NCBI GenBank assembly: GCA_035546575.1
Contig: DASZWN010000001.1
Span: 1 to 47,081 of the forward strand
Direction of reading: 5' to 3'
Origin: Minisyncoccota bacterium
GTDB lineage: Bacteria; Patescibacteriota; Minisyncoccia; Phycocordibacterales; SBAW01
Length of the DNA stretch: 47,081 nt
Each line of letters opens with the position of its first letter. Position 1 is the first letter of the stretch. This document shows, piece by piece, positions 20,736 through 26,913 of the stretch. Both the position numbers and the translations under genes were made by a program. The notes beneath the pieces are model-generated. The model was not told where the DNA came from. It was given only the letters and a program-made list of their open reading frames with translations, and ran no database searches.

Positions 20736-22172
20736 TCAGTCTTTGCGCGGGAAAAGATTCTCCGGTTTTTTATTAGCTACGATTGCTTCTTTAAGGATAC
20801 GATTAGTCTCGGGCATAAACGGGTTGAGCATGCGGACGATTATATACAGCTCCTGTGTGAGCGCAAAAATAAGCTTCTTCCCCTCTTCGGGCTTATCTTT
20901 TACTACCTTAAATGGTTGCGTGTCGGTAATCTGCTGATCAAGCAGTTTGATACGCTCCCAGACAAAGTCGAGTGCGCGATTACTCTCGAACTTTTCGAGA
21001 GCCTCGGTATATTGCTTAGGAAACCCTACCGCCTCGGGTCGTGTACCTTCCCCAAGATGCGTCTGCGCAAGCTGCATGATACGTGCAGCCAAATTGCCGA
21101 TACCGTTGGCTAGGTCGGCATTGTAGGCAGCCTTAAAGCGCTCCATCGTAAAGTCGCTGTCATCAAACGGGTGTATGTGGCGCAGCAGGAAGTAACGCAA
21201 TGCGTCGATACCATACTCCTCGACAATTGCGAGCGGGTCGATAACATTGCCGAGCGATTTGCTCATCTTTTGTCCGCCGCTGGTGATAAAGCCGTGGTAG
21301 AGTACACGCCCTGTCTGTGGCAGCTCGGCCGACATAAGCATTGCCTGCCACATAACAGACTGGAATCGCACCTGATCTTTACCTGCTATCTGGAGCGTCT
21401 CACCGTCTTTCCAAAACTTTTTAAATAGCCCGTCTGTATCCTCCGGCCACCCAAGAGTGGAGATGTAGTTGGTGAGCGCATCAAACCACACATACATCAC
21501 CTGCGTGTCGTCGTCTGGCACCGGCACACCCCAGCTCATGCGCGAGGTTTCCCGCGAAATACTAAAGTCTTCGAGCCCAGCCTCAACAAACGTAATAGCC
21601 TCTTCTCTGCGCCAATCCGGGATAATAACGTCTTGTTTTTTGAGATAGTCGAGAACTTTGTCCTGATATGCGCTCAGTTTAAAAAAGTAGTTTTCCTCCT
21701 CGATCTCTACAGGAGTCAGGTTTGGGTGGTTGGGGCATCTGCCGTTTACCAAATCAGTTTCTTTAAGAAACATCTCATCACCCACGCAATACAGCCCCTT
21801 ATATTTCTTTTTATAAATATCACCCTTTGCAGCACAACGCTTCCATAGCTCTTGTGCTGCCGCCTTATGATGCGGGTTAGTGGTGCGGATAAAATGGAGG
21901 TCGCTATAGAGACCTAGTTTTTCTTTAAGCTCGCGGAATTTCGCTGCGTACTCGTCGACATAGCCTTGTGTCTCCTTCCCCTCCTCCGCAGCCTTCTGGA
22001 ATATTTTCTGGCCGTGCTCGTCGGTACCGGTGTTAAAAAAGACCTCTCTACCCATCAAAGTTTGGTAACGCACCAGCGCGTCCGCCTGTACCATCTCTAG
22101 CGCAAAGCCGATATGCGGCGCTGCATTTACGTACGGCAAGGTTGTCGTTAGGTAAAAAGGCTTTTTAGACAT
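20736..22172 (-). CDS. metG: Methionine--tRNA ligase (short form, no C-terminal tRNA-binding domain)
   Basis: MSKKPFYLTTTLPYVNAAPHIGFALE (HIGH-type motif) and KMSKSLGN. The start is set at the ATG at 22172. The ORF-track extension to 22325 overlaps the upstream gene and is not MetRS-like. Confidence 0.95.
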   Translation of the reverse strand: MSKKPFYLTTTLPYVNAAPHIGFALEMVQADALVRYQTLMGREVFFNTGTDEHGQKIFQKAAEEGKETQGYVDEYAAKFRELKEKLGLYSDLHFIRTTNPHHKAAAQELWKRCAAKGDIYKKKYKGLYCVGDEMFLKETDLVNGRCPNHPNLTPVEIEEENYFFKLSAYQDKVLDYLKKQDVIIPDWRREEAITFVEAGLEDFSISRETSRMSWGVPVPDDDTQVMYVWFDALTNYISTLGWPEDTDGLFKKFWKDGETLQIAGKDQVRFQSVMWQAMLMSAELPQTGRVLYHGFITSGGQKMSKSLGNVIDPLAIVEEYGIDALRYFLLRHIHPFDDSDFTMERFKAAYNADLANGIGNLAARIMQLAQTHLGEGTRPEAVGFPKQYTEALEKFESNRALDFVWERIKLLDQQITDTQPFKVVKDKPEEGKKLIFALTQELYIIVRMLNPFMPETNRILKEAIVANKKPENLFPRKD

Positions 22173-22182
22173 ATAGGTCAAC

Positions 22183-23250
22183 CTACCCCGCTGCCTTCTC
22201 CTGTGCAAGCTGGCGTGCCAGAGCGCGAGTCTTTTCTCGATCGACATCGGAGACAAACTCCTGTATTGCTCCCGCAATCGGCACCGAGAGGAGTACCCCG
22301 AGGAAGCCAAATAATTTAAAGCCAATGAGAAGCGCCAAAATAACCAAGAGCGGCGGCACGCCTACAACCTTTTTAACCACAACCGGATAGATGAGATGCG
22401 CCTCAAACTGCTGCACCAGCACGTAGAGGCCGACGACAAGCAGTGCCTCGGTAGCGCCGCCTGTACCAAAGGCGAGCGCAACAGCCGGGACCGCTGCGAT
22501 AAATTGCCCGAAGACCGGTATCAGCTCGCAGATGCCAGCGATAACCGCAAGCAAAAGCGCGTATGGCACGCCAAGGATCATAAGACCGAGATACAAGAGC
22601 ACTCCGACAATTACCGCGAGTATCAGTTGCCCTTGCATCCATTTGCCTATCTTTTCCTGGCTACGCTTCCAGAGGTGGAGTACGTAGGCCTGTTCCTTAA
22701 CTGGTGTTACCACGCGCAGGAAGTCATCGATACCTGTTTCTTGCACAGAAAAGTAGAACGAAAAGACGACAATAAGCACGAATGAAGTGACGCCGCCGAA
22801 TATTGCCGAGAGCGTGGTAAAGGCGCCACCAGTCGTGTCGGCAAGCGTTGACGAGAGATTTTTAAGGAGCTGCGCGGATGAAACCGTGTCGGCAACGCTC
22901 CCCCACGGCAAGAGCCCGTGTGTTGCGTCGGAGATATTGAGCGTGGTGAGAGTCTCGGGCAGTTTGTCGAGGAATGTAGCAGCGTCGGAGAGGACCGGCG
23001 GAATAAAGAGAAAGAGTACGGTAAACAAGACGGTGGCAACTCCCGCGTATATTGCGATAACACCCAAGAGACGGGGCACTCCGCGCCGCACAAATGCGTG
23101 TACTCCAGGCTCGATAGCTGAGGCGATAACCACAGCGGTAAGCACAATAAGCACCAAGTCGCGCAGATAAAAAACGAGTGCGGCAAGCACTATAACCAGC
23201 AGCGCCATAAAAAGGCTCGCTGGATTGATAGTGATGTTAAAATCCTTCAT
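22183..23250 (-). CDS. AI-2E family transporter (PerM/YhhT-like permease)
   Basis: 355 aa with about 8 TM helices and the family-typical C-terminal half (LILAVIVGVL...ELIPVFGQFIAAVPAVALAF...HLIYPVVVKKVVGVPPLLVILALLIG). Confidence 0.85.
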   Translation of the reverse strand: MKDFNITINPASLFMALLVIVLAALVFYLRDLVLIVLTAVVIASAIEPGVHAFVRRGVPRLLGVIAIYAGVATVLFTVLFLFIPPVLSDAATFLDKLPETLTTLNISDATHGLLPWGSVADTVSSAQLLKNLSSTLADTTGGAFTTLSAIFGGVTSFVLIVVFSFYFSVQETGIDDFLRVVTPVKEQAYVLHLWKRSQEKIGKWMQGQLILAVIVGVLLYLGLMILGVPYALLLAVIAGICELIPVFGQFIAAVPAVALAFGTGGATEALLVVGLYVLVQQFEAHLIYPVVVKKVVGVPPLLVILALLIGFKLFGFLGVLLSVPIAGAIQEFVSDVDREKTRALARQLAQEKAAG

Positions 23251-23259
23251 TCCCCTATC

Positions 23260-24081
23260 TTACACCCTTATCTTTTGTGATAGAAGCTTCGCGTTGCCTT
23301 GGCTGAGGAGACCTAGATACGAATTCCGAGTCGCTTCCGCTCTTTCTTGCCCTTTGCTCTCTTGCAATCGTTTAAACATTCTTCTCTTCGTGCTTGTGCG
23401 CAGCACGCGATGAGTTGGAAAATGCACCCAGCCAAGAAAGTCCACGCCAGAAGCAAAGGTTTTAATAAAAGTCTTATCCTGATGTAAAGTGAGTTTTAAT
23501 TGTTCTTTCAGAAACAGTTCCATATATGGAACTGTTTCTTGGAGCTCCTTTTTGTAATCAGACAGCAGCACAAAGTCATCCGCATACCGAATATAATACT
23601 TTGCCTTGAGTGTGTGCTTTACGAATTGGTCGAACTCGTTCATATAGATATTCACCAGAAGCTGTGACGTAAGATTGCCCAGCGGCAGGCCCACCTTCCC
23701 GCCAGCAAGGTTCGACCTTACTGAAAAGCTGCCGATGACTTGCCCTAGAAGCCAGAGAATGTCTTGGTCGGGTATGTACTTTTGTAGGATTTGGATAAGT
23801 ATGCCTTGGTCGATGCTCGCGAAGAACTTTTTGATGTCGCATTTGAGTACCCACACGGTACGGGTGTGGTTGCGCCCTCGCTTTCTCGCATATGCGAAAA
23901 ATTGAGTGAAGGCTTTGTGCGTGCCCTTCCCCACCCGGCAGGAGTAGGAGTCGGCAATAAAGGTGCGGCCAAAGAACGGATAGAGCTTGCGGTAGAGCGC
24001 ATGGTGTTGCCGGTCTTGGAGCGAGTCAAACAAGCCTATTTGCTCTGGCATGAGTACCATTCTACGCTGCCAAAAGTACAC
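23260..24081 (-). CDS. DGR-type reverse transcriptase (N-terminally short; possibly truncated)
   Basis: 273-aa ORF with RT motifs DRQHHAL, SYSCRVGKGTH, VLKCDIKKFFASID, the DGR-signature LPLGNLTSQLLVNIYMN (LGxxxSQ), and RYADDFVLL. The ORF opens with GTG. It has no convincing RBS, and upstream in frame there is only antisense avd sequence. Confidence 0.85.
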   Translation of the reverse strand: MYFWQRRMVLMPEQIGLFDSLQDRQHHALYRKLYPFFGRTFIADSYSCRVGKGTHKAFTQFFAYARKRGRNHTRTVWVLKCDIKKFFASIDQGILIQILQKYIPDQDILWLLGQVIGSFSVRSNLAGGKVGLPLGNLTSQLLVNIYMNEFDQFVKHTLKAKYYIRYADDFVLLSDYKKELQETVPYMELFLKEQLKLTLHQDKTFIKTFASGVDFLGWVHFPTHRVLRTSTKRRMFKRLQESKGQERAEATRNSYLGLLSQGNAKLLSQKIRV

Positions 24082-24378
24082 CGGTATACGATTGGAGAGA
24101 AAATTGACACCTTGTTTATTGAAATATTGGAGGCAATCTCAACAGCGGCATTTCTGTCGCGCGAAAAGAAAGTACCGTATATATTGCTTGGCTTACAAAA
24201 GCTTAATACGCTTACCTTATTACTCATGATTTTGTGGGAAACAAAGTCTCTGCGGGACAAAAGGTATATAGCTCTTTCGCTCCCACTCGATGAAATAGGA
24301 AGAATGCTCAATGGGTGGCAGGGTCAACTCCAAAAACAAAACTCCCCCGAAGCCGCGAGCCGGACGAGAGAGAAATGA
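24001..24378 (+). CDS. avd: Four-helix-bundle protein (23S rRNA IVS protein family; Avd-like DGR accessory protein)
   Basis: The C-terminal 126 aa of the 23791..24378 ORF are typical of the four-helix-bundle family to which Bordetella phage Avd belongs (VLERVKQAYLLWHEYHSTLPKVHRYTIGEKIDTLFIEILEAI...LQKLNTLTLLLMILWETKSL..KRYIALSLPLDEIGRMLNGWQ). The part upstream of 24001 is merely antisense to the RT gene. The start codon is uncertain. Confidence 0.75.
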   Translation: MVLPVLERVKQAYLLWHEYHSTLPKVHRYTIGEKIDTLFIEILEAISTAAFLSREKKVPYILLGLQKLNTLTLLLMILWETKSLRDKRYIALSLPLDEIGRMLNGWQGQLQKQNSPEAASRTREK

Positions 24379-24384
24379 AGAGAG

Positions 24385-24521
24385 TTGCGGAGACGGAACA
24401 CGACCGCGTTGTCGAGATTCCACTCGTTGTCCGGATTCGTCCAATTGGTGTTGAGCCACGGCTTGCCGTCATCGTTGTGCTTGACGTTGAACACGTTCGG
24501 GTTGCCATCGGAGTCGGTTAT
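24385..24521 (-). repeat. DGR template repeat (TR)
   Basis: 137 bp aligning without gaps to 24839-24975 (offset 454). In the VR reading frame it is rich in AAC/AAT codons (ITDSDGNPNVFNVKHNDDGKPWLNTNWTNPDNEWNLDNAVVFRLR). Confidence 0.9.
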
Positions 24522-24760
24522 GTACGAGGTGCCACCCGTACCACTGCCCCTTGAACACTCTTAGGACTGTATCTGATTCGACATCGTAATGCCTTAGCAC
24601 CTCGCACCAAGTATCTTCAATTTTTTGAAGTGTCTACATGCACCACTCTTTCTTCAACCACGGTCGAAGAAACTCTCGGCGCATGGATACTGGATTCGGC
24701 AGCGGACAGTCCTTGCCATCCGCATACTCGCCTACTACCAAGGTTAGTATATACGTAAAA

Positions 24761-24786
24761 TGGCCCCGCTCTTGCGAGCGGGGCCA
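24761..24786 (-). terminator. 11-bp GC-rich hairpin with a GCAA (GNRA) loop downstream of VR; target-gene terminator and/or DGR target-site hairpin
   Basis: TGGCCCCGCTC-ttgc-GAGCGGGGCCA on the plus strand. On the minus strand the loop is GCAA and the stem is followed by TTTTAC. It lies ~50 nt 3' of the VR end. Confidence 0.7.
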
Positions 24787-24834
24787 AAGGGTTAAGGGAC
24801 TAAGCGTGAGAGCTAAATCCCTAAGTGAGAAGGG

Positions 24835-25503
24835 CTACTTGCGGAGACGGAACACGACCGCGCCGTCGAGATCCCACCCGTTGTCCGGACCCGCCCAACT
24901 GGCGCCGAGCCACGGCCTGCCGCCATCGCTGCGCCCGACGCTGAACACGCTCGGGCGGCCACCGGAGTCGGTGATCTGCTTCATGGCGGTCCAGAAGTAA
25001 TCGCCGCGCAACTGGTCCTTGAGTTCCAGCCGGATAGCGGGTCCGTCGCCGGGCTCGCATAGGCTATGGCCGAGTTCGCGGATGCGCGCCCAGATTTGCG
25101 CGGTCGTCGGATTCTTGGTGAATCCGAGATCACGTATCGTGACGCGAGCGAACTTGACCGTCTCCTTCTTGCCGGGCTTCCAAGCGGGCTTGGACATGAT
25201 GTCCTTCGCCCAATCGGAAACAGAGCAGCCACTCGACTTGAGCTCCGCGAGGAGTTCGTCCTTCGACTTGCCGCCGACCTTGATCTCGAGATAGACCGGA
25301 AACACCGGTCCTCTCTGCGAGAACGTGCGGATGCCTTCGGCCAGGTACGCCGCAAAACCCTTGCTCTCGATCAGCAACTGCCCTGCCTCGTCGTCGAGGC
25401 CGGCCTTGTTGTACTGAGCGCGAAAAATCGCAACCGCTTCCTGCCCTTTGCGGCTATCAGCGGTCAGGGTGGTAGACGCTTTCAACGCTGTTCGCGTCGC
25501 CAT
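24835..25503 (-). CDS. DGR variable (target) protein with the VR in its C-terminal ~45 codons (C-type-lectin-like ending)
   Basis: The ATG at 25503 is preceded by AAGGAG; the TTG-opened ORF extends to 25521. The C-terminus is ...ITDSGGRPSVFSVGRSDGGRPWLGASWAGPDNGWDLDGAVVFRLRK*. No signal peptide is visible. The fold assignment is inferred from the W/G pattern and FRL ending common in DGR targets. Confidence 0.8.
   Translation of the reverse strand: MATRTALKASTTLTADSRKGQEAVAIFRAQYNKAGLDDEAGQLLIESKGFAAYLAEGIRTFSQRGPVFPVYLEIKVGGKSKDELLAELKSSGCSVSDWAKDIMSKPAWKPGKKETVKFARVTIRDLGFTKNPTTAQIWARIRELGHSLCEPGDGPAIRLELKDQLRGDYFWTAMKQITDSGGRPSVFSVGRSDGGRPWLGASWAGPDNGWDLDGAVVFRLRK
24839..24975 (-). repeat. 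DGR variable repeat (VR)
   Basis: 137 bp. By hand alignment there are 23 mismatches to TR, all at positions where TR (minus strand) has A. The last 24 nt at the 3' end are identical to TR, and homology stops 1 nt before the stop codon. Confidence 0.9.
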
Positions 25504-25575
25504 CGTCAGTCTCCTTCTCAAAGAGCCGATACGGAAAGCTCAGGCAGAATGCCCGGGTCCGTCAGCTACTTATAA

Positions 25576-26913
25576 TTATACTCCTTTTATAGCAGAAGTC
25601 AAGTACCCTGAAAGCTCTTGTACTGTAAGGCGCTTTTGCTCGCCGGTGTCTCTATCGCGCACGGTTACGGTGTCTTTAAGCTCGGGCTTTTCGCCAAGCG
25701 TGTCGAAGTCGATCGTGATGCACCACGGCGTGCCTATTTCGTCTTGGCGGCGATAGCGCTTGCCCACGTTGCCGTTGTCATCAAATACAATCTGCGGGAT
25801 CTCTTTCTTGAGCATCGCGTAAATCTCGCGAGCCTTAGCTACAAGCTCGGGCTTATTTTTGAGGAGCGGAAAGACTGCGGCCTTAATAGGCGCTACAGCG
25901 GGAGCGAATTTGAGATACGTGCGAGTCTCACCGCCCAGAGTGTCTTCTGTGTATGCGCTTGCAAGGACTGCGAGTACCGTTCGGTCTACACCAAGCGACG
26001 GCTCAATTACATGCGGCACAAAAGGCTCTTCGCCCTCATCTCGGTACGAGAGGTCTTTTGCAGATCCCCTGGCATGGGCCGAAAGATCAAAGTCGGTACG
26101 ATATGCCAAGCCGTAGAGCTCTTTGCGGCCAAACGGAAAGTCGAACTCAAAGTCGATCGTGCGTTTAGAGTAATGTGCTCGATCTCCATCGGCAACCTCT
26201 AATTCATGCACCGCATCTTTTTTGATACCGACTGCCAAAATAAAATTGAGTATTACCTGGCGCCATTCCTCAAACTTCCCTTCCCAATCAGATGGGCGTA
26301 CAAAGTATTCAACCTCCATCTGCTCGAACTCGCGCGAGCGGAACACGAAGTCGCGCGGCGCTATTTCGTTGCGGAATGCTTTGCCGATCTGCGCCAAACC
26401 GAACGGAAGTTTTGGGTGCAAAGCGTCGAGCACATTCTTAAAGTTAACAAACATGCCACCCGCAGTCTCGGGGCGCAAGTACGATACGCTCGACTCGTCT
26501 TCGGTAGCGCCAACATGCGTCTTAAACATCATGTTGAACTGGCGTGCCTCTCCCAATTTGCCTCCGCAATCTGGACAGATACTCCCCTCTACATGGTCGG
26601 CGCGGAAACGGTGTCTGCATTTTGCGCACTCAACTAATGGATCGGAAAATCCGCTCACATGTCCTGAGGATTCCCACACCCTTGGGTGCATGAGTATTGC
26701 AGCATCTACCCCATACATGTCGTCGCGCGAGTCGACAAACATCTTCCACCATATGTTTTTTATATTGTTCTTGAGCGCAACGCCAAGAGGCCCGTAGTCC
26801 CAGGTGCCGGCCAAACCGCCGTAGATTTCTGACCCTTGGAATACAAACCCGCGGCGCTTGCACAGCGAGATTATTTTTTCCATCAAATCCATCTGATTTT
26901 CTTCCTGGGCCAT
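25576..26913 (-). CDS. glyQS: Glycine--tRNA ligase (homodimeric class II type)
   Basis: 445 aa: ISLCKRRGFVFQGSEIYGGLAGTWDYGPLG, FRNEIAPRDFVFRSREFEQMEVEYF, and a C-terminal anticodon-binding domain. Confidence 0.96.
   Translation of the reverse strand: MAQEENQMDLMEKIISLCKRRGFVFQGSEIYGGLAGTWDYGPLGVALKNNIKNIWWKMFVDSRDDMYGVDAAILMHPRVWESSGHVSGFSDPLVECAKCRHRFRADHVEGSICPDCGGKLGEARQFNMMFKTHVGATEDESSVSYLRPETAGGMFVNFKNVLDALHPKLPFGLAQIGKAFRNEIAPRDFVFRSREFEQMEVEYFVRPSDWEGKFEEWRQVILNFILAVGIKKDAVHELEVADGDRAHYSKRTIDFEFDFPFGRKELYGLAYRTDFDLSAHARGSAKDLSYRDEGEEPFVPHVIEPSLGVDRTVLAVLASAYTEDTLGGETRTYLKFAPAVAPIKAAVFPLLKNKPELVAKAREIYAMLKKEIPQIVFDDNGNVGKRYRRQDEIGTPWCITIDFDTLGEKPELKDTVTVRDRDTGEQKRLTVQELSGYLTSAIKGV

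Follow-up and report, generated by a model that had tools for sequence, protein, structure and literature searches.

The window analysed here is a stretch of 47,081 nucleotides (nt) from Minisyncoccota bacterium (GenBank assembly GCA_035546575.1, contig DASZWN010000001.1, positions 1 to 47,081), and it holds a diversity-generating retroelement (DGR) consisting of a target gene that ends in a variable repeat (VR), a template repeat (TR), an avd-like accessory gene and a reverse transcriptase (RT) gene. The element is best explained, with a probability of roughly 0.83, as a chromosomal DGR of architecture B3, the type found in the Candidate Phyla Radiation (CPR), whose RT was clipped by one blunt deletion of ~280 nt and which was recently inactivated. 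Judged from its sequence, it is a DGR by descent and not an intact DGR. The coordinates of all features are collected in Table 1 and refer to the window unless a related locus is named.

Deletion junction and truncated reverse transcriptase

The reverse complement of the window was aligned at the DNA level with the related loci L001 and L002 from the target gene to the RT stop codon, and was found to be collinear with both, the sole exception being one gap located between 24007 and 24006. At this junction the sequence ...GACCGGCAA (ending at 24007) is joined straight to CACCATGC... (from 24006), and antisense avd sequence reads in frame into the His-His of the DRLLHHA motif. The deleted stretch comprises the 5' upstream region of avd, the divergent spacer between avd and RT with its poly-G tract, the RT start and ~85 RT codons. 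Neither a flanking repeat nor usable microhomology was present at the junction ends in a repeat search and in the alignments. A microhomology deletion via GACCG, which occurs in antisense avd and in the RT 'DR' codons, was considered and rejected, as the retained GGCAA is avd-side sequence.

The RT open reading frame (ORF; 24081-23260, minus strand, 273 aa, GTG start) matches the Pfam family RVT_1 and has intact LGNLTSQ and YADD motifs, corresponding to the signature of DGR-clade RTs ([I/V/L]GxxxSQ and YxDD). Its best match among solved structures is the Bordetella RT (bRT; E 1e-25), with residues 22-239 of the query aligned to bRT 82-284. Homologs in the database number thousands, the best being annotated as Patescibacteria, 62-74% identical and mostly 320-350 aa long. 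An alignment of 17 close homologs (61-68% identical over the whole alignment; best local match P0002, 74%) displayed a conserved N-terminal block, Y.DIISVENLL.AW.EF..GK...ISDPKPRDIHKASVRDRLL, which is missing from the window RT; every column invariant across the alignment is also kept in the window sequence, which is true by definition. P0002, the closest full-length relative, aligns to bRT 7-306, and the window RT evidently has no counterpart of bRT ~1-86, amounting to ~85 N-terminal residues. The published bRT model contains an N-terminal extension and fingers, with R74 located in the dNTP pocket and promoting adenine mutagenesis (PMC7826257). A complete RT domain (N-terminal extension, fingers RT0-RT2, palm and thumb) is thus not encoded by the window RT.

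The missing N-terminus was not found elsewhere in the 47-kb window using tblastn with the 85-aa N-terminus of P0002, and the possibility of a split gene was rejected on this basis; no second RT was found within the window either. A naturally short RT subclass was likewise rejected, as the homologs of 287-300 aa are late start calls or contig-end fragments. The DNA of L005 (P0007), for example, encodes a full RT N-terminus despite the short database protein.

The original prediction, which was made from the same sequence, had described an RT that seemed to be clipped at its N-terminus and had offered a recently inactivated copy as one of two readings, the other being a functional variant. Re-reading of positions 22800-26200 confirmed its coordinates for the TR, VR, avd and RT ORF, the gap of 6 nt (24379-24384) separating the TR end from the avd TGA (24376-24378), the head-to-head overlap of 81 nt (27 codons) between RT and avd, the GTG start, and the 19 sense codons that lie in frame upstream of the GTG and are preceded by an in-frame stop. 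The clipping was borne out, with homology beginning only at bRT 82 and the N-terminal block of the 17 homologs missing, and recent inactivation is probable, as the deletion removes the RT start and the other parts are undamaged. The 273-aa ORF does not cover the full RT core, the counterpart of bRT ~1-86 having been deleted. The proposal that RT-like sequence extends from DRQHHAL onward holds from the His-His, where true RT homology begins, but not for the 'DR', which is the antisense of avd codons L-P-V and does not belong to the RT.

Layout of the locus among relatives

Species-representative genomes were scanned with the RT, yielding 80 further loci, of which the 75 with enough upstream DNA are referred to as informative. 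Most of the 80 best genome matches are titled as Patescibacteria or CPR metagenome-assembled genomes (MAGs), the rest as 'bacterium', 'uncultured bacterium', Gammaproteobacteria or Methanosarcinales. All informative loci (75/75) have avd immediately upstream of the RT and in the reverse orientation, the gap usually being ~40 nt. For 57 loci the distance separating TR and avd stop codon amounts to 0-35 nt, with 6 nt the commonest value, and the VR lies 240-430 nt further upstream. The over-extended N-termini of several database relatives (P0006, 'MNFREGRIVFMPQQIGLFDTLQ'; P0002 and P0023, 'LTRSKTGK') mirror the antisense-avd frames of the window, and the loci of these relatives have the order target-VR, ~330-nt spacer, TR, 6-nt gap, opposite-strand avd stop and divergent RT.

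In the window avd occupies the interval separating TR from RT and is read from the other strand, which matches architecture B3, 'TR-(avd)-RT', described by Wu et al. (2018, NAR 46:11, PMC5758913) and accounting for 90% of CPR DGRs. The layout had been called atypical in the original prediction; this view has to be abandoned, since the reverse-oriented avd upstream of the RT recurs in every informative locus and evidently represents an ancestral layout that this RT clade has conserved, known and typical. The divergent orientation of avd is a shared character of the relatives. The accompanying proposal of an RNA 3' of the TR that is antisense to avd proved to be real for this class of DGRs.

Repeats and target gene

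TR and VR form a direct repeat of 137 nt with 83% identity. On the minus strand all mismatches (23/23) fall at TR adenines, comprising 21 A>G and 2 A>C changes, with 16 adenines unchanged and zero mismatches at non-adenine bases over the 137 nt. The VR occupies the 3' end of a coding target, ending one nt into the last sense codon and 4 nt ahead of the stop codon, and is followed by a GC-rich inverted repeat, the position of which is kept in L001 and L002 with different stem sequences. A second VR was not found in the whole 47-kb window. The longest ORF of the target gene runs from a TTG start at 25521 to 24835 (minus strand), and no Pfam domain was detected in it by Pfam profile search.

Two further observations were made on these sequences. 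Adenine substitutions across the clade are skewed to A>G (62% of 826 in 49 related loci), and the skew in the window is beyond the clade rate (21/23, binomial P ~0.002 against that rate). The target gene is GC-rich, at 60-62% compared with 52% for the window.

Leader RNA and TR-closing helix

The spacer between VR and TR is conserved across 52 loci whose RTs share only ~60-65% identity. Folding of 29 loci with RNAalifold predicted four helices and a 12-bp long-range helix ending ~10 nt before the TR, with 54 pairs in total, 43 of which show compensatory double changes. The region of leader and -10 box corresponds to 24522-24741 (minus strand) in the window, 3287-3531 in L001 and 3010-3236 in L002, and is found in ~50 other loci. 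A search of Rfam 15 returned only sub-threshold terminator look-alikes for the TR flanks of the window and nothing in 10 related loci.

The most conserved 'unpaired' block of the leader, AAAUGAAGA, is complementary to UCUUCAUUU directly 3' of the TR. The resulting helix, AAAU(U)GAAGA / UCUUCAUUU, brackets the TR and covaries across 31 loci (for example GAAAA/UUUUC, GUGA/UCAC and CGAAGA/UCUUCG), with double changes in 6/9 pairs; 87.8% of cells are paired, compared with 40-60% when the partner is slid, and 0/500 shuffles reach this value. The 3' strand of the helix overlaps the avd stop codon, which accounts for the recurrent gap of 6 nt between TR and avd stop. The functional DGR RNA of the class thus seems to consist of the leader, the TR and a short antisense-avd tail, and all of the RNA elements of the class are intact in the window.

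The avd gene and the avd-RT spacer

The window avd matched the Pfam family bAvd (PF22296) with E 1.3e-8 and 35.7 bits over profile positions 17-104/107, against a curated cut-off of 40 bits. It aligns over its full length to the avd of L001 (74% identity), which has a recorded PF22296 match. The RT His-His codons (CAC CAT, 24006-24001), read on the other strand, give the ATG-GTG that opens the avd ORF (24001-24006), which is evidently a product of the deletion fusion, an accident and not a native start. Codons 110-121 of avd show an extreme synonymous bias (CAA 26:1, AAC 28:0, GAG 21:1), unlike the remaining gene, and the TR-sense block GGGGGAGTTTTGTTTTTGGAG (24328-24348) is identical in three loci that are otherwise ~70% identical. 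This suggests a nucleotide-level constraint on the TR-sense strand at the 3' end of avd, possibly exerted by an overlapping RNA or DNA element.

A G tract, 7-14 nt long and commonly 9-10 nt, is present in the avd-RT spacer of 64/75 loci, and other simple repeats occupy the tract site in three loci (L047, L050 and L079), namely (GA)17, (CTGG)10 and (CTGG)8. The tract lies at 4032-4040 in L001 and ~25 nt upstream of the RT ATG in L086-L095. In 17 loci an in-frame ATG follows exactly 13 nt past the tract, with a TAnnnT hexamer ahead of the ATG. On the avd strand, the idea that the poly-C is avd coding sequence was rejected, because upstream of the tract many loci show a stop codon but lack a start codon; the poly-C evidently lies in the 5' leader or promoter of avd, outside the ORF. 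When the poly-G was considered as a promoter spacer, its distance to the candidate -35 was found to vary between loci.

One and the same RT sequence (P0119) is encoded by ten contigs of different sample origin, which have tracts of 9, 10 and 11 nt in 4, 4 and 2 contigs, respectively. At least three VR alleles occur among these ten contigs and differ at TR-adenine positions, a positive control for the activity of full-length B3 DGRs. The tract length variation may indicate phase-variable control of avd and RT, or may be homopolymer error. In L086, one of these ten near-identical contigs, five TR differences were seen, all at adenines (alignment columns 508-540); this TR looks adenine-mutagenised, or the assembly mixed TR and VR reads.

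Features and genomic context

The DGR cassette is flanked by ORFs at 20736-22325 and 22183-23250 (both minus strand) and, on the other side, at 25576-26913 (minus strand), which from their translations resemble a methionyl-tRNA synthetase (MetRS-like), a membrane protein and a glycyl-tRNA synthetase (GlyRS-like), respectively. The contexts of the cassette in relatives are unrelated (RuvC/RuvB in L001, BipA/chitinase in L002, ribosomal protein S6/SSB in L086), indicating that the cassette has moved between genomic sites.

Table 1. Coordinates of the DGR features in the window and of the segments missing relative to related loci
Feature	Position	Strand	Remarks
Target gene	24835..25503	-	likely ATG at 25503 behind AAGGAG; VR forms the C-terminus
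Promoter-like site TTGACT-16-TATAAT upstream of target	25575..25602	-	11/12 consensus matches; consensus match only
Variable repeat (VR)	24839..24975	-	3' end of target ORF
GC-rich hairpin and T-run	24761..24786	-	after target; putative terminator and/or DGR inverted repeat downstream of the initiation of mutagenic homology (IMH) site
-10 box TATACT	24736..24741	-	class consensus TGnTAnAAT, just after terminator T-run, 52 loci; putative promoter
Structured leader RNA, ~210 nt	24522..24729	-	directly 5' of TR; predicted by RNAalifold on 29 loci
Closing helix, 5' strand AAAUUGAAGA	24614..24623	-	covariation
Template repeat (TR)	24385..24521	-	direct repeat with VR
Closing helix, 3' strand UCUUCAUUU	24373..24381	-	other strand contains avd stop codon
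GGGGGAGUUUUGUUUUUGGAG block	24328..24348	- (TR-sense)	antisense to avd codons QLQKQNSP; identical in 3 loci
avd-like accessory ORF	24001..24378	+	native part from TTG 24007 (LPVLE...)
Deletion junction	24006..24007		280-286 nt of relatives missing, blunt
RT remnant	23260..24006	-	HHA of motif RT2 to stop; ORF runs on to GTG 24081 via antisense avd
Missing relative to L001	L001 4024-4303		280 nt
Missing relative to L002			282 nt
Missing relative to L085	L085 5760-6045		286 nt, flanks same

Proposed mechanism and alternative explanations

Copying of the TR with misincorporation at adenines and replacement of the VR are established for DGRs in general. In intact members of the class the target gene would end in a terminator hairpin, and a dedicated promoter just after this terminator, proposed from its conservation, would drive a TR transcript. 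According to the covariation described above, this transcript would begin with the ~210-nt structured leader, continue through the TR and end in a short 3' tail, which overlaps the avd stop codon in antisense and folds back to pair with the leader. avd and RT would be expressed divergently from the ~40-nt spacer with its poly-G tract, and the RT-Avd complex would copy the TR with adenine misincorporation, the cDNA then replacing the VR. The last step is supported for this clade by the VR alleles of conspecific contigs, which differ at TR adenines.

In the window, one deletion would have taken the divergent spacer, the RT start and the residues equivalent to bRT ~1-86, including R74, and avd would have lost its native upstream region with it. 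The window RT is almost certainly inactive. The inactivation is probably recent, since the TR, VR, leader, avd coding sequence and remaining RT are undamaged, and the VR is probably now frozen. Decay of this kind has precedents among the related loci: in L036 (2790-3030) an independent deletion across the same junction removed avd codons 1-65 and RT codons 1-53, and no VR was detectable in this locus, while L006 (1157-1417) has a frameshift in the N-terminal region of its RT.

Several points weigh against recent inactivation. The window is a metagenome-assembled contig, and its deletion may not be fixed in the population or may have arisen in assembly. What is left of the RT ORF is free of damage, stays open and could start at GTG or ATG, and continued selection on a truncated protein would look alike. 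The window represents 47 kb of the genome, and the RT of a second DGR could act in trans; several CPR MAGs carry two DGRs (L015/L022, L018/L037 and L048/L081). Finally, the promoter assignments are consensus-based and hence putative.

The deletion might also be given a regulatory meaning. The divergent spacer of B3 DGRs could be a hypermutable switch that toggles Avd and RT, the window deletion then being a 'locked-off' derivative that is irreversible and keeps a selected VR frozen, as opposed to random decay. The left end of the deletion lies ~8 nt from the tract site of relatives. This idea is considered improbable, and it is even less likely that the undamaged RT remnant of 263-273 aa keeps some activity or role.

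It is very unlikely that the deletion was produced by the assembly or represents a minority allele, with the real or dominant genome having a full-length RT and a working DGR. Besides the metagenomic origin of the contig, such an explanation draws on the failure to find a conspecific contig: no exact-protein match was obtained for avd, the flanking permease or the called RT that would identify an undeleted allele, and a metagenome scan with the left-flank pattern returned only another species (L085). In addition, the missing stretch would hold a poly-G of 9-11 nt, a tract that is difficult for sequencing and whose length differs among assemblies from a single population. However, the junction is blunt, with no repeat or microhomology to make an assembler collapse the sequence, the flanks are perfectly collinear with relatives, and a similar deletion arose independently in L036.

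It is very unlikely that the element is still functional, either with the truncated RT as a workable minimal enzyme or with the RT-Avd of another DGR serving the TR and VR in trans. This would be in keeping with TR and VR differing at adenines only, without drift at other bases, with the undamaged state of the retained RT and avd, with the intact leader RNA and closing helix, and with the presence of two DGRs of the clade in some CPR genomes. However, the N-terminal extension and part of the fingers are gone, including the counterpart of bRT R74, and this segment is present in every relative with complete sequence; the native RT start has been lost as well, along with the control region that avd and RT share. 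Action in trans is further disfavoured by the lack of a second RT within the 47 kb and by the specificity of bRT-Avd reported for its own DGR RNA (PMC6182149).

The inversion put forward in the original prediction, which would have placed avd in reverse between TR and RT while truncating the RT, accommodates the opposite strand of avd and its head-to-head overlap with the RT ORF but has a negligible probability, as avd has the same orientation and position in the 75/75 informative relatives with full-length RTs, no inverted repeats flanking avd were found in a repeat search, and the alignment needs only a simple deletion of 280 nt.

Recent inactivation by deletion is retained as the preferred explanation. 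The finding itself matters little, being one more defective copy of a classified architecture that says nothing on minimal RT requirements, but it carries two cautions: a reverse avd between TR and RT is not anomalous in Patescibacteria, and short RT ORFs in this group need to be checked against full-length relatives before they are interpreted.

Comparison with known systems

With the B3 DGRs of the CPR the window shares the order and orientation of target-VR, TR, reverse avd and RT, the adenine-specific mismatches, the LGNLTSQ motif and the RT clade, with best local matches 57-74% identical to Patescibacteria RTs. It differs from them in having lost ~280 nt over the avd-RT spacer and the RT 5' end, and would consequently fail the 'putatively functional' filter of Wu et al., who excluded over half of the DGR candidates in their set because of truncation or comparable defects (PMC5758913). 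With degenerate DGR remnants, exemplified by L036 and L006, it shares the truncation of one part and repeats that are still recognisable; however, it is unusually clean, having a single blunt deletion and no other decay.

The DGR of Bordetella phage BPP-1 (mtd-VR, avd, TR, spacer, brt) has in common with the window the adenine mutagenesis between TR and VR, an Avd four-helix bundle, a homologous RT, and a VR at the target 3' end followed by a GC hairpin. The avd of BPP-1 is located upstream of the TR on the same strand, whereas that of the window is reversed and adjoins the TR, and a counterpart of bRT 1-86 is missing from the window RT. In BPP-1 a non-coding spacer of 140 nt 3' of the TR carries the priming site Sp A56 (PMC6182149). 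This structured spacer 3' of the TR contrasts with the arrangement predicted for the CPR class, where the long structured RNA precedes the TR and base-pairs with a short tail on the 3' side of the TR. Taken together, the leader RNA, the closing helix and the simple-sequence tract suggest that the priming and recruitment RNA of CPR DGRs is organised unlike the Bordetella paradigm; the leader RNA, closing helix and poly-G tract are better leads than the truncated copy and may deserve a study of their own.

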